Part shown: one piece after another, positions 1-12,800 of the stretch
Layout of the letters: each line of letters starts with the position of its first letter
Position numbering within the stretch: position 1 is the first letter of the stretch
Translations under genes and position numbers: made by a program
Notes under the pieces: model-generated
Told to the model about the DNA's origin: nothing
Seen by the model: the letters and a program-made list of their open reading frames with translations, nothing else
Database searches by the model: none
Source: Lewinellaceae bacterium
GTDB lineage: Bacteria > Bacteroidota > Bacteroidia > Chitinophagales > Saprospiraceae
Direction: 5' to 3'
Assembly: GCA_016716135.1 (NCBI GenBank)
Contig: JADJWX010000028.1
Span: 160,487 to 224,486 of the forward strand
DNA: 64,000 bases

Positions 1-83
1 GCAACCCCCTCTACGGCTCCCCTCCCCCCTTGGGGAGGGGTTGGGGGTGGGGTTGCTCCCCCCTCCCCAAGGGGGCCGGGGCC
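1..83. repeat. GC-rich palindromic, G4-forming repeat inserted in frame in ileS. It is related to the TIRs at 11119-11157 and 11657-11695 and is cut by the window edge.
   Basis: The + strand reads cccctccccccttggggaggggttgggggtggggttg, a 9 bp stem (CCCCTCCCC/GGGGAGGGG) followed by GGGG-TT-GGGGG-T-GGGGTTG. A second degenerate hairpin, ctcccccctccccaagggggccgggg, follows. On the ileS strand the region translates without stops as ...MEGNPF|[28 protein letters not shown]... Confidence 0.75.
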
Positions 84-1773
84 GAATGGATTCCCCTCCA
101 TCAGCCCAGCCGCCACAGCCTTGTCCACCTCCTTGCTCAACTGCTCAATTGAGCCGATGCACAGCTCCTCACTTTCATCTTCCGTACGCCAGATCGGCAA
201 CGGCACCCCCCAGTAGCGCGAGCGGCTGAGGTTCCAGTCCTGCAGGTTTTCGAGCCATACGCCAAAACGCCCAGTGCCGGTGGAGGCTGGTTTCCAATTG
301 ATGGTTTTGTTCAACTCGGCCATGCGCTCGCGGGCTGCCGATGCGCGGATAAACCAGGAGTCGAGCGGGTAGTACAGCACCGGCTTGTCGGTCCGCCAAC
401 AGTGCGGGTAGCTGTGTTTATATTTTTCAATGCGGAAGGCCTTGTTCTCGTCCTTAAGTTTGAGGGCGATGAGCAAATCCGTGGGTTTGAAATCTTTTTC
501 AGCCTGCACCTCTGCCGGGTAATATTCGGCTTTCACATAGCGCCCGGCAAAGTCGGTCACTTCCGGCACAAAACGGCCCTGTTTATCCACGAGGGGCAGG
601 ATGCGGCCTTTGTCGTCGGGCACGCCTATCATGGGTACGCCGTTTTCCTTGCAGGCGCGCATATCGTCGGCGCCAAAGTAGGGGGCGGTATGCACCACGC
701 CGGTACCGTCTTCAGTGGTCACCCAGTCGCCGGGCAACACGCGAAACCCATCCTTTTCGAGTTCCGGGGAGCTCACATAGGGCATCAATTGTTCAAAGTG
801 GACGCCTACCAGGTCTTTTCCCTGAAAGGTTTTCTCTACTTTAAACGGGATGTTTTTATCGCCCTCCTTGTAATCTTCAAATGCCAATGCCGCGTTTCCC
901 TCCGGAAAATAAGCCGGCAGGCGGTCCTTTGCCAACACCAGGCTAACCGGCGCGCCGGTGTACGGGCTGAAGGTCCGAACCTTGGCGTACGTGATGCCCG
1001 GGCCAACGGTAAGCGCCACGTTACTGGGCAGCGTCCAGGGCGTAGTGGTCCAGGCAAGGATGCGCACATCCTCGTCATCGGCATCAAACAGGAAGGCCGA
1101 CCGGTCTTCGCGTTTTACCTTGAACATCGCCACCGTGGAGAAATCTGTCACTTCTTTATAACAACCCGGCATGTTCAGCTCATGCGTGCTCAGGCCGGTT
1201 CCGGCAGCCGGGCTGTAAGGTTGAATGGTGAAGCCTTTTGTACAAAAACGATTCGCCGTTGGCCGTTCGTTTTTCGTACAGCCGCTGAAGCAGCCACCAG
1301 CAGGATTCGATGTATTCGTTTTTGAAGGTGATGTACGGATTGTCCAAGTCCACCCAGTAGCCCATTTTCCGGGTAATATCATCCCAGAGGTCTTTGTAGC
1401 GCATGACCGTGGTGCGGCAGGCCTGGTTGTATTCCTCCACCGTGATTTTTTTTCCAATATCCTCTTTGGTGATGCCCAGTTCTTTTTCCACCTGGAGCTC
1501 GATAGGTAAGCCATGCGTATCCCAGCCGCCTTTGCGCTCCACACGATGTCCCTTGAGGGTTTGGTAGCGGCAAAAAATATCCTTCACCGTGCGGGAAATC
1601 ACATGGTGGATGCCGGGTTTGCCGTTGGCAGAGGGGGGGCCTTCGTAAAACACGAATGCGTTTTCGGCCGGGCGCTGGTCGACGGATTTTTTAAAGATCT
1701 GTTCATCGTCCCAAAACTGGAGGATCTCGGCGTCGATGCTGGGTAGGTGGAGGTGTTTGAATTCTCGATACAT
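1..1773 (-). CDS. ileS: Isoleucine--tRNA ligase (type 2), first ~590 codons. It runs off the left edge and has an apparent 1-nt frameshift at 1236-1239.
   Basis: The ORF from the ATG at 1773 reads [27 protein letters not shown]...[51 protein letters not shown] (HIGH-type motif). After a frame change at a T4 run on the + strand, my manual translation continues [32 protein letters not shown] ... [25 protein letters not shown] ... [18 protein letters not shown]. Confidence 0.9.
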
Positions 1774-1842: not shown

Positions 1843-2633
1843 TCATGGTTTTCCCCAATAGTCTGCCTGCGCTTTTATTTTCCCTTGTTTGAAAAAGACA
1901 CCGCGCTTTGCACTGAGCGGGAATTTCTTGAACCCATTCCGGTTTCATAGGGCGGGGTTTCCTCCCGCTTTCACCACCGACAATAACCCAATCAATTGAA
2001 TCGAGATTTAGGTTTTGCAGTGGACCAATCAATGGTTCCAAGGAAAGGAATTTTACATGAGCGCCAGTCTGCCCAAGAATCGTCGATCAGAACCTCTGTT
2101 CTCAACAACACTCCATATTGGGCGTCCGTTCAGGGGGCGGTAGGCTGCAGTAAAGCCGCACGTTTAGTCATACTTGAAATGGTGTTGGGGCATTCATTCA
2201 TGACTGGAGACCGCGAATGTTCAATGGAATTTCTTCATGAAAAATCCTGCTGTTTCAAAATGACAGATGGCTTCCAGCGCCTCGGTTTGTTAATCTCCTC
2301 TGGATGCAGTGTTAATTTGAAGTCATTTTTATATTTTCTACCCTTGCGTGGCGCCCAGAAAGCTTCAGCTAACAAATTTGCACGGCGAATCCGTGCGCCG
2401 GTTGTGGTTCCGTTTGTTGGTCCTTCTGGTGGTGTGCCGGTTATTTTTTTTCGATAATCTCTTTTGCAATCTTCACTGCCGCGGTATTATTCGATGCAAA
2501 CACAAAATGGAAAATTGGGCCCTATTATTTTTAAAAGGGTTGGCGTCCATCGCGTGTCGGCTATTCTGTTGGGATTTGTAACCTTCGATGTGTTCTGGGT
2601 TTCAGAAAATAAACTTCCCTGTTTTGTTTTCAT
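1843..2633 (-). pseudogene. DUF5131 (phage Gp37/Gp68 family) gene, disrupted by several frameshifts and in-frame stops
   Basis: Manual three-frame translation recovers family-typical blocks scattered over the frames: SEDCKRDY (the CxxCY region), [117 protein letters not shown], and GVFFKQGK...YWGKP followed by a stop. The region is low GC and rich in homopolymers. Confidence 0.6.
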
Positions 2634-3381
2634 AGAAAAGTTGGCGAATTTCTTCTCAATAAAAAAATGACTCAAGCTTTTTAATAGACTTTAATTCTCC
2701 TTTCCGATCTAAGAGCCTATTAACAATTACACCAGTAGGAAGCAAAATCCATAAATCAGAATGAGTTCCTCTCAATTTTGAAATTGAATCCCATTGAATT
2801 TGCATGCCAAACGGGTCTAAAAAAATGAGAGCGGCAGTGGTTTGCTGCTGGCGCTTTCAGAACGTTGCAACACCGGCCACCCCTTGTAGCGTTTATTAGC
2901 CACCGGTTTGATTCATTTTGATCAAAAATACAAAAAGGCGCATTGAGTCGAATCACACGTTCAGCCGCTCCTCTGTAAACTTCCATTTCTTCTTCCCTAA
3001 TATCAATCAACCTTAAGCATCAACCCTGGCTTTCGTCACCGCCCCCGGGGCCATCAAAAAAATTGTTCGACCGGATGCGTTCATAAGAAATACGCTGTTA
3101 CATTGATAAACAAATTTTCCGTCCAGCCCCCAAGTTTGCACAGGTGATTTGTTCCGAGGTCTTGTTCCATTTACTGAGTGAAAAAACAAATTTACGCACT
3201 TAAAACAAAGTGTGTTATATTTGGAAAGTGCAACCCATGTGCACACTTGCCGGGGTTTTTATTTCCTAAAAAGCAAAACCGCGCGTCAGGTGTGCAACCC
3301 GTTGCGAATAATAATGCTGTTGGAAATTATTTGTGCGAATAGCATGGTGCAAAGATAAACAGAATTTTAATGCAGATGGTT

Positions 3382-9846: not shown

Positions 9847-12800
9847 TTAAACATAGTTGTACAAATCTATAAACGCCCGGTATCGCGCATCTTCTTGCAA
9901 AACATCCGGATTGCCTATGACGATCACCTGCTCCCGGGCGCGGGTAAGCGCAACGTTCAATTTCCGATCGATGCCCTCATTGGAAAGATTGACCAGTTTG
10001 GCCAGCTGACTGCCCGCATGCACGCAGCAGGAAATCAGGATCACCTCCCGCGCGCCGCCCTGGTAGCGTTCCACGGTGTCGATGGTTTGCGCATCGGGGT
10101 CAAGCCCGGCTTCGGCGATTGCCTGCCGGATTTGTGCAATCTGCGCCCGCCAGGGTGTGATGATGCCCAGGCTGGTTTCCGGGTCCCAGGGTTTGCCCAT
10201 GGCAGCCCATTTTTCTTTGAAATGCCGGAGCAACTGCGCGACCATTCGGGCCTCCTCGGGCGCTGTTTTTTGATAGGGTAACGCATTATCAGCGCGCACC
10301 GGAATGAATTGGACGCGACGTGCCCAGGGCCCGGACAAGTCTGCTTGATCTTCCTGGAGTTGGCGGTGCTGCCTGTGCGTGTCGTCCGGTTCATCACCTG
10401 CCAGAGTTTGCAACTGGCCGTCGTAAAAATACCGGTTGGGAAAATCCATGATGTCGGCATGCATGCGGCCCTGGCGGTAGAGTTGGCCGTAGTTTTCGTC
10501 CAATCCATGCTGCTGGCAGATGCGATACAGCCGTTCGAAGTAGGAATCGCGCAGATCGAAGAGGCCAATGGCGTTTAACTCAGGATCGTCCACCCGGGTA
10601 AGTTCCGGGGCTTGCGCAGTCACGGCAGGTAGCTGCCGGTGGTCGCCGATGAGCACAAAATGCTCAAAGCGGGTGAGCAGGCCCACCAGTTGGGGTTCCA
10701 GAATTTGGGACGCTTCATCGACTACCAGTCGTTGTATTTTTTTGATCGCCAGCAGGTTTTCATTGTGCGCAAACGAAGCCACCGTGCTCACGATGATACG
10801 CCGGGGCTCCAAAATCGCCAGCAGTTCGGCCCGGTTTCCGGCATTGGCAGTGTGTGCGCTGAGCAGTTGGTCCCTAAACCTTTCGGCGGTGGAGAAGCGC
10901 GAACCGATGCGGAGGTATTGCGTGCGGATGTCGCCGCCGAGGCTGTCGAGCGCTTCGCAAATTTCGTCCACTGCCCGGTTGGTGTAGGCCAGTAGCAGCA
11001 GGTTGTCGGTGGTTTCGCGAAGTACCCAACCGGCCAGGTCGCGCAGCATGATGCTGGTTTTGCCGGTGCCGGGGGGGCCCCAGAGGAGGAAGAAGTTTTT
11101 GGCGTTGGCGATTTTTGGCAACCCCACCCCCATCCCCTCCCCCAGAGGGGAGGGGGGCTTGGCCTCGGGATTATTTTTGATGTTGGGAACCTTGGCCAAA
11201 TCTTTACGGCGTTTGGCAATGGTTTGGCGAAGGGAATCAAGTGTTTGGTTCGTTCGGTTTAGAATATCGGCATTTGTAAACCGAATTACTTCGAAACCGG
11301 CCAGTTGCAAAAACTCGGTTCGCAGAGCGTCCCATTCCGGTTGGAAATCGTGGATGTTACCATCCAGTTCAATAACCAGGCGAAATTCTAAACTGACAAA
11401 GTCCGCGATAAATTCTTCAATGGCGTGCTGGCGGCGAAACTTAACACCATCCAATTTTTTATCTCTGATTTTCTCCCAAAGTACAGTCTCTGCTTCCGTT
11501 TGATATTTTCGAAGATTGCGGCAAAAGCCCTTCAGATAGCGCCATCGTGCCATATCCGTAGTTTCCTGCGGCTGGCCAAAAGCGCCAATTTTCCTAACTT
11601 TTTCCGCATCAGGAGCCGAATCATACCCCGAATGCTTTGAAAATCCAGAGGGCAAGCCCCCCTCCCCCTTGGGGGAGGGGATGGGGGTGGGGTTGAGAAT
11701 CAGGGCGCGGTTTCCCGCCCCCGCCCACTCAAACAGCCCCCGGTACATCGCCGTGAACCCCATGTCCAGCATATCCGGTTCCAGGTTCCACAGGGCACTG
11801 GTTTCAAAGGGCTTCAGGTTGAACTGGCGGTAACGGAGTTGCACCGTCACCTGATCGGACTTGAGTTCCGTGATAATGCACTTGATCACCTGGTGGTCGA
11901 GCACGGTGTCGGTTTCCGTTTCGGCGGGGTAGAGCACGGCGATGTCGCCGACGCGGAAATTGGCCAGTGGATTGGTCATTTCCGTTTTTTGAAAAATAAT
12001 GCAGGGGTCGGCCTGATCCGCGCGGTTTTGCATAATTTTCAAATGGCTGAGAATAGCGTAGGCCTCTTGTTTTTCGGCAAAACTGCTCCGCCAAAGCGCG
12101 GCATTACCATTGACGGTATCGCTGTTTTCTTCACCCACTTTGGCCAACCACTGCTCGCGGGCAATGAGGCCGCAAAAGGCGTTGAAATATTTTTTCTCCA
12201 GCGAATTAAGTTTGCCGTAGGCGGCCTCAAACTGGCCGAAATCGCGCTGTAAAAAATCGCCCTGCGGCGCCTTGTCAGCCCGAAGGCGCTGAAGCAACGG
12301 CACCTCAACATCGCCCGGACGGATAGCCGCCAGCAGGCGCTCGATGCCCACCAGGTGGTTGCGCACTTGCAGGGCCTCCCACTGCTCGGGCGCCACGGTA
12401 GGGGCAAAACGCAGTTGCTGCACGTCCATACCCGAGTACAGAATGTACTTGGCCGGGTCGGCCTGGGCGCCGTACACCGAGCGCACAAGCAGATCGTAGA
12501 GCAGGGTCTGCGTGAAATGGCTGCGTTGGATGCCGTAGGCATTGGGCCGGTACGGGGTGCCGCTTTTCAATTCGACGATGGCCGAGCGGTCATCCTGCCG
12601 GAAAAACAGATCGAGGCGGCCCTGCAGGCCAAATTGTTCGCTGTAAAATGTGGGCTCCAACACACAATCGGCGGGGTCGATCTGTTGCTGGGCCAACCCG
12701 GTTTGCGCCATGTATTTCAGGTTCAGGTAATGTTTTTGGGCTTTGCCCAAAATTTCGCGCACTTTGGCGTCGGGCATCGGCGCAAACACGAAGGGATAGG

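Follow-up and report, generated by a model that had tools for sequence, protein, structure and literature searches.

An in-frame DUF559 nuclease element with hairpin ends in the isoleucyl-tRNA synthetase gene of a Lewinellaceae bacterium

Results

The ileS locus at the left edge of the window

The window, by which we mean the whole stretch of 64,000 nucleotides that was analysed, spans positions 160487-224486 of contig C28 in the 6.4-Mb genome under study (G000). Its left edge cuts through ileS, which lies on the minus strand and is interrupted there by a repeat-bounded insert. The features needed to follow the argument are these; C28 coordinates below 160487 lie to the left of the window.

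window 1..55 (C28:160487-160541), minus strand: upstream (in the ileS sense) terminal inverted repeat of a DUF559 element, the inverted repeat of its downstream end and one of 84 family copies in the genome; it comprises an inner arm, a 9-bp hairpin (CCCCTCCCC/GGGGAGGGG) and a G-tract (GGGGGTGGGGTTG)
window 57..83, minus strand: degenerate hairpin of 27 nt, GGCCCCGGCCCCCTTGGGGAGGGGGGA, additional to the terminal repeat and separating it from the NPF codons; read GPGPLGEGG
window 84..1238, minus strand: ileS editing/CP1 region to ...MEGNPF, in the frame of the element; TIGR00392 match over cut-off; best solved relative P. megaterium IleRS2 (8C8U)
window 1236..1239, minus strand: A4 run on the coding strand, one base longer than in G005, which breaks the ileS frame (|GF)
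window 1239..1773, minus strand: 5' part of ileS (MYREFKHL..., HIGH region) in another frame; start codon at window 1773-1771
C28:160401-160087: DUF559 (PF04480) domain of the ileS insert, E 7e-33
C28:160054-160003: inverted downstream repeat of the ileS insert

A sequence-only reading of the window had described a hairpin repeat within the IleRS frame at this edge, and the repeat is there as quoted, window 19-55 reading CCCCTCCCCCCTTGGGGAGGGGTTGGGGGTGGGGTTG, together with the second, degenerate hairpin at window 57-83. The IleRS frame does run into the repeat without a stop (minus strand, window 1-155), and the peptide rendered as GEGGG in that reading should be GEGG. The copy is cut by the window edge, as had been noticed, and its partner repeat lies 430 nt leftwards at C28:160003-160054.

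The repeat is laid out as CCCCTCCCC-CTT-GGGGAGGGG-TT/TCG-GGGGGTGGGG, that is, C-stem, loop, G-stem, loop, G-stem. The tract that had been called a G4 is present, and is better accounted for as the third strand of a hairpin-plus-G-tract motif of the BoxC/PIT/TM type (PMC4666352). The repeat belongs to a genuine family: matches to the window-edge copy occur at 37 further places in the 6.4-Mb genome (E 2.7e-13 to 8e-4); a more sensitive scan of the genome found 84 repeat copies, and a relaxed pattern of the C-stem/G-stem/G-stem layout gave 67 matches. The repeat core (window 19-55) has zero stop codons in all six frames and encodes a Pro/Gly-rich stretch in whichever frame it is read; within window 1-84 a stop appears in just one frame, where the inner CGTAGAG supplies it. 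In a three-way DNA alignment the 27-nt hairpin is absent both from the sister species G005 and from a near-identical Logan contig (L071), which makes it a recent addition of exactly nine codons.

Anatomy of the insert

The sequence-only reading left it undecided whether the truncated copy was a short cargo-less derivative or a full element. Extending the sequence leftwards settled the matter in favour of a full endonuclease-bearing element, inserted in the ileS reading frame as had been claimed and in register at both junctions. The insert is 597 nt long (C28:160569-159973), forms 199 in-frame codons with no stop and sits between ...MEGNPF and DLHRPYIDD of IleRS. In the ileS sense it consists of the 27-nt hairpin, the terminal repeat, two helices, the DUF559 domain, the inverted repeat and 30 further nucleotides. 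The DNA of an empty ileS site reads AACCCGTT...GACCTCCACCGCCCCTACATCGAC.

The domain matches the DUF559 profile with 113.2 bits against a cut-off of 20.6, over profile positions 4-108 of 109, and apart from this Pfam returned solely a sub-threshold match to MTES_1575. The domain matched PDB 3HRL, at E 2.5e-16 when searched as a single sequence and at 1.4e-33 when a profile was used. The catalytic domain of the homing endonuclease I-Bth0305I (3R3P) was also hit by a profile of the embedded DUF559 domains (E 1.9e-5), profile positions 22-93 aligning with chain residues 23-95.

An AF2 model based on a 32-sequence alignment (mean pLDDT 71.7) gave the DUF559 domain a pLDDT of 76-86, while both linkers, residues 387-437 and 557-589, scored about 26-31. 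Ahead of the nuclease core the model has two short helices and nothing more. On P. megaterium IleRS2 (8C8U) the insertion site lies between residues 479 and 486, in the stretch with the two CxxC pairs of that enzyme, and falls in the loop between a helix that ends at the insert and the conserved DLHRPYID strand of type-2 IleRS. We judge this loop to be permissive because its length varies naturally.

State of the host gene

By tblastn and TIGR00392 this is the only ileS in a genome that is 97.6% complete. A truncated ileS with an intact second copy elsewhere had been raised as a possibility, and the locus is otherwise: the frame resumes at DLHRPYIDD past the repeat and there is no second ileS. 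The candidates for a second copy, an 894-aa ValRS-like frame on C4 and weaker ones on C30, C2 and C5, look like paralogous class I synthetases.

The gene in this assembly nevertheless carries lesions, and it could be a decaying pseudogene or an assembly artefact, in which case its in-frame state would tell us nothing about tolerance. One lesion is the extra base in the A4 run at window 1236-1239; a synteny comparison of G000 with G005, which is noisy at 85-90% identity, places it as a single extra base at window 1237. The other is at the 3' end, where 963 nt of DNA with 27-34% GC (C28:157804-158766, about window -2682 to -1720) stand in place of 421 native nucleotides. What this AT-rich DNA encodes is a diverged homologue of the IleRS C-terminal domain; two frameshifts interrupt it, as does a TAA where a Tyr is conserved. 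Downstream of it, about 20 codons from the native end of ileS remain, ahead of ftsK. Either assembly error or real mutation and decay could have produced the extra base and the 3' lesions.

Against decay as the general explanation stand the single-copy status of ileS in a nearly complete genome and dN/dS values of 0.038 and 0.060 (0.04-0.06) in the IleRS parts on either side of the insert, G000 against G005, which imply that decay, if any, is recent. The same element lies in the intact 1357-aa ileS of G005, and the Logan contig (L071, 93% identical) carries it in a gene with the native 3' end. We thus consider it unlikely that the in-frame state reflects a dying or misassembled gene, while noting that, given the lesions, the G000 copy alone is no proof of tolerance, which is best shown by the intact ileS of G005.

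Two further observations concern the surroundings of the gene. An open frame of about 150 aa, HEAT-like, follows the broken C-terminal domain in the AT-rich 3' replacement. Upstream of ileS, window 1843-3250 has low GC and broken open frames resembling a DUF5131 (Gp37/Gp68) gene; with the AT-rich 3' end, ileS is thus flanked on both sides by AT-rich decayed DNA.

Selection on the nuclease and signatures of splicing

Read in the ileS frame, the nuclease domain shows purifying selection, with a dN/dS of 0.076 at a dS of 0.65 between G000 and G005. In a subset of 30 sequences D34, E45, D47, G48, H51 and D58 do not vary, and the predicted catalytic residues are all present in the ileS copy; across 106 embedded copies the DF, E.DG..H and FRRQ columns are at least 95% conserved. 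The linkers differ between close relatives by indels of 27 and 18 nt, both multiples of three.

Essential genes are the usual home of self-splicing elements, and when the mRNA-sense element is folded to minimum free energy, its two repeats form a stem of about 50 bp that draws the ileS junctions together. The insert might therefore be removed before the enzyme works, by an unrecognised form of protein splicing or by an RNA-level process that uses such a repeat-repeat stem. None of the signatures of removal was found, however. Pfam gave no Hint or intein domain in the insert and Rfam no intron at E-values up to 1. The junction residues vary among the relatives compared (G, S, N, D or K on the N side, A, F or V before DLHRPY), with no conserved Cys, Ser or Thr nucleophile and no His-Asn pair; the residue after the insert is Asp. 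On these grounds we rejected an intron or an intein. Excision of the RNA would, moreover, need neither a preserved frame, nor an absence of stops, nor linker indels in triplets, nor a low dN/dS. Removal of the insert by any route seems to us very unlikely.

The same site in related species

We searched 40 related genomes and examined ileS of 17 relatives between the conserved IGS and DLHRPY. Had the Pro/Gly-rich stretch been an ordinary conserved part of IleRS, as the sequence-only reading allowed, it should be general in relatives; in the IleRS comparison ten of the 17 have no DUF559 insert there. Eight of these have an insert-free loop of 23-30 aa, G018 has a 44-aa stretch without DUF559 and G002 an unrelated mosaic patch, likewise without it. 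The G002 patch (L044, G002:C108:6000-13500) is about 190 aa long and highly diverged, and the flanking conserved blocks are rewritten too (PIWTGKFSG...YAIGS; ...VLVFKNDAGEFETDKLWIRE), which points to a distant ileS as the source of a mosaic or gene-conversion tract.

Counting G000, seven species carry a DUF559 insert at the same spot, with 192-289 aa between IGS and DLHRPY. In five of them, G005, G004, G009, G017 and G024, the ileS frame is uninterrupted and 1303-1412 aa long; in G014 the insert is present and the ileS frame is broken upstream of it. The inserts belong to two nuclease lineages, lineage 1 in G000, G005, G004 and G009 and lineage 2 in G017, G024 and G014, and both end at most two codons from GACCTCCACCGCCC. 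In the lineage 2 genes only the 3' side has hairpins. A lone hairpin (SSPSPTGRGG) occupies the site in G020, the sister of G000 and G005.

On an IleRS tree built without the insert columns, the states of the site need 12 changes, compared with 11.7 when the labels are shuffled, and filled and empty sisters face each other across starred branches in the pairs G014/G019, G017/G002 and G009/G016. The site has thus been gained and lost repeatedly. Co-conversion of host flanks is a hallmark of homing. A sliding-window scan of flank identity showed no clear sign of it, only a weak local peak for G004 and G009 and none for lineage 2. No target-site duplication is definable at the ileS site, since the empty loops vary and are themselves partly palindromic.

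Two of these genes have features of their own. In G009 (L041, G009:C43) a complete doublet of about 58 aa stands on each side of the nuclease core as direct repeats (TPNPSPEREGDL...SPSLSGEGLGxG), which could reflect a duplicated target doublet or insertion between tandem doublets. The ileS of G019 (L042, G019:C11:1500-9500) is an open frame of 1538 aa that runs about 380 residues past the normal C-terminus with no stop; this extension may be another in-frame fusion or the result of a lost stop codon.

Other copies in the genome

The genome has three DUF559 copies, all in frame, within ileS, hutU and a nuclease-helicase gene, with 424-726 codons of open frame upstream of them and 257-479 downstream. 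The copy in the nuclease-helicase is the second full element of the window:

window 11118..11695, minus strand: second full element, with hairpin repeats and a DUF559 domain 55% identical to that in ileS, in a 1296-aa nuclease-helicase ORF; its ends lie at window 11118-11158 and 11659-11695

The ends of this element, 11 kb away, had been called near-identical to the repeat in ileS. They are members of the family and similar to it, at 90-92% over 37-41 nt, but not near-identical. The three nuclease domains are 54-55% identical to one another; judged by this divergence the copies are old, with no sign of recent transposition within the genome.

Besides these, there are about 30 cargo-less inverted doublets and about 25 solo repeats, most of them intergenic and a few in frame in genes. 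The in-frame ones lie in an FG-GAP/ASPIC-like protein (NPTPGPSPRGEGG...PLPPGEGVGAGG), a multi-pass membrane protein and a KdtA-like transferase:

G000:C4:79182-79293: in-frame cargo-less doublet or solo
G000:C2:529355-529533: in-frame cargo-less doublet or solo
G000:C11:222645-222679: in-frame cargo-less doublet or solo

A pair of terminal repeats 1040 nt apart on C5 was considered as a further element and set aside; no ORF reaching 90 aa lies between the repeats, and they are probably two solos. The parallel with Rickettsia palindromic elements that had been drawn for ileS suits the cargo-less copies, a few of which are in frame, but not the ileS copy, since it carries a nuclease.

Distribution in public data

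A search with the insert sequence over 5.8 billion proteins yielded 98 protein clusters, 630-1514 aa long, in which DUF559 is embedded in a host protein. IleRS accounts for about 40 of the 98. The other hosts are LeuRS, SF1 helicases, MetH, methylmalonyl-CoA mutase, urocanase, MutS, DNA methylases, LigA, CPSase, CobN and DEAD-box helicases, and the few clusters with a named organism come mostly from Bacteroidota. The majority of the IleRS cases have the domain at the site described here, and at least four other IleRS sites are also used. In related families DUF559 also occurs as free-standing genes, each with an ATG and a stop of its own and set symmetrically between hairpin repeats that are its own and differ from those in ileS, which indicates that nuclease and repeats travel and co-vary as a unit.

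A tree of the nucleases labelled by host gene needs 27 changes, compared with 63.6 for shuffled labels (none of 200 shuffles was as low); as related sequences share labels, this grouping shows clustering and not mechanism. On the same tree the IleRS inserts at this site need at least three origins.

Alternatively, the domain might have been domesticated, serving a cellular function in IleRS and its other hosts and having lost its mobility. That selection and the catalytic residues persist over a dS of 0.65, along an apparently vertical descent of G000 and G005, is what such a function would lead one to expect. The domain is, however, patchy among congeners and does not follow the IleRS tree; its hosts, from tRNA synthetases and MetH to urocanase, MutS and CobN, are unrelated and have no common function; and G020 has lost it, with a lone hairpin left behind. 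We regard domestication as extremely improbable.

One public record bears on how such genes are annotated. P0054 is a 631-aa protein named by NCBI 'class I tRNA ligase family protein'; it is apparently the product of G005 ileS, and of IleRS it contains just what follows the insert. Automated annotation thus appears to truncate such genes and to hide the phenomenon.

Discussion

Comparison with known systems

Our search of the full-text literature found no published description of in-frame DUF559 elements. The nearest relatives by fold are the EDxHD (Vsr-like) homing endonucleases, a family first described in PMC2677866 and whose prototype is I-Bth0305I (PMC3239194). The catalytic domains are homologous, and both kinds of gene appear as selfish DNA inside conserved host genes with recurrence at fixed sites. 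I-Bth0305I has N-terminal NUMOD/HTH modules, whereas Pfam finds none in the ileS insert, and it resides in a self-splicing group I intron, its family members otherwise lying beside split inteins, while the ileS nuclease is in the host frame and is apparently retained. Cleavage and homing have been demonstrated for I-Bth0305I; for the ileS element they are proposed.

With inteins the element shares an in-frame position in essential housekeeping proteins, dependence on the host for expression, a nuclease, a patchy distribution and recurrence at the same site. It differs from them in having neither a Hint domain nor junction nucleophiles, and is seemingly tolerated as an extra domain on flexible tethers. 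The ShiLan domain of actinophage DNA methylases (PMC11855218) comes close in another way: it is homing-like, keeps the frame of its host open, lacks any recognisable intron or intein machinery and is predicted to loop out of the host protein. Its nuclease is an HNH enzyme encoded in a different frame with its own GTG and TAA, whereas that of the ileS element is in the frame of the host, has another fold, is bounded by hairpin terminal repeats and occurs in cellular genomes. The palindromic elements of Rickettsia and other in-frame MITEs (PMC10969869) are dispersed palindromes that lie in frame and leave genes unbroken, as the cargo-less doublets do, but they carry no gene, and the ileS copy has a complete nuclease domain.

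The terminal repeats resemble the BoxC/PIT/TMECO intrastrand-triplex repeats, whose layout is C-stem (9), loop (3-6), G-stem (9), loop (3), G-stem (9) (PMC4666352). In the repeats described here the C-stem and the first G-stem measure 9 nt each, with a 3-nt loop between them, and a 2-3-nt loop leads to the second G-stem; like BoxC repeats, these repeats form inverted doublets. The sequences differ: the stem is CCCCTCCCC here and CCCTCNCCC there, the TMECO consensus CCCTCNCCC...GGGNGAGGG...GGGNGAGGG is not matched, and blastn of the repeat against E. coli genomes gave no match. TMECO is reported to be always intergenic and to have no associated mobility gene (PMC4666352). One BoxC/TMECO copy of E. 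coli K-12 (L072, NC_000913.3:1351205-1351239) is located 168 nt downstream of the DUF559 gene ycjD, a neighbour of fabI, and the link between DUF559 and BoxC-type repeats may extend to that species.

REPIN-RAYT systems offer a last comparison, with a low-copy enzyme gene between inverted hairpin repeats and many dispersed doublets. Here the enzyme is a Vsr-like nuclease and not an HUH (IS200-like) transposase, and the copies are intragenic and in frame. None of the nearest published systems, EDxHD enzymes, ShiLan, Rickettsia elements or BoxC/TM repeats, unites a nuclease in the host frame with hairpin ends and with retention in an essential protein.

What moves, the repeats or the nuclease

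The main rival to a nuclease-driven element takes its cue from the RAYT genes among REPINs. The hairpin repeats themselves would be the mobile or unstable unit, spreading through replication slippage, palindrome recombination or another enzyme, and DUF559 would be a passenger or a repeat-associated housekeeper that does not drive homing. The numbers lend this some weight, with 84 repeats for three nuclease genes and the cargo-less doublets lying mostly between genes, and so does the layout, which is that of TM motifs, for which no mobility gene has been found in E. coli (PMC4666352). At the ileS junctions palindromes are stacked in layers, down to the 27-nt hairpin specific to G000, and the doublets themselves are arranged in more than one way, whole on each side of the nuclease in G009 and on one side only in lineage 2. 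Passenger status fits poorly, however, with a nuclease tree that clusters by host gene and site, with a nuclease that is under purifying selection and keeps its catalytic residues, and with the free-standing DUF559 genes that are bracketed by different repeats of their own. On balance we think it somewhat unlikely that the hairpins alone are the unit that moves.

A model for the element

The reading that we favour, with a probability of about 0.6, builds on the demonstrated anatomy, frame preservation, repeated gain and loss and purifying selection. It holds that ileS carries a complete selfish DUF559 element of 597 nt which is translated, is retained without splicing and spreads in a homing-like manner, and from which the hairpin doublets are derived. 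A member of this family is a DUF559 frame (Vsr-like, of the PD-(D/E)XK type) that has no start or stop of its own and lies between GC-rich hairpin inverted repeats. The insert would be translated with its host and would stay in the mature IleRS as a separate domain on two disordered tethers, neither protein nor RNA splicing taking place. The element is probably selfish, with an expression that would depend on the host gene and a frame that would be kept by selection on the host.

Its spread into empty ileS alleles would proceed by nuclease-triggered repair, as in homing, with rare jumps to new permissive loops. Cleavage of empty alleles and homing are suggested, indirectly, by the recurrence at the same site, the patchy distribution and the clustering by host gene. 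The cargo-less hairpin doublets may be miniature derivatives of the element.

More tentatively, the DUF559 elements and the BoxC/TM-like repeats might together form a distinct and widespread selfish class. Its members would occupy permissive loops of essential proteins, have stop-free ends that encode Pro/Gly linkers, be expressed only as internal domains, never be spliced and home to empty alleles by means of their nuclease. They would be functional counterparts of inteins that need no protein splicing, and they would supply the missing enzyme partner of BoxC/PIT-type repeats. This is a possible extension of the model rather than one that we would press.

If the insert is translated and kept, it would represent a third way, besides introns and inteins, for a selfish element with a nuclease to persist in an essential gene. 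As an additional domain on tethers it would do no harm, the element's own terminal repeats encoding its linkers. Its behaviour would explain why gene callers split or truncate the genes that carry it, and the BoxC/PIT-type repeats, so far unexplained, would gain a candidate enzyme. The inserts would also mark permissive sites in IleRS, LeuRS, MetH, MutS and other proteins, which would be useful for protein engineering.
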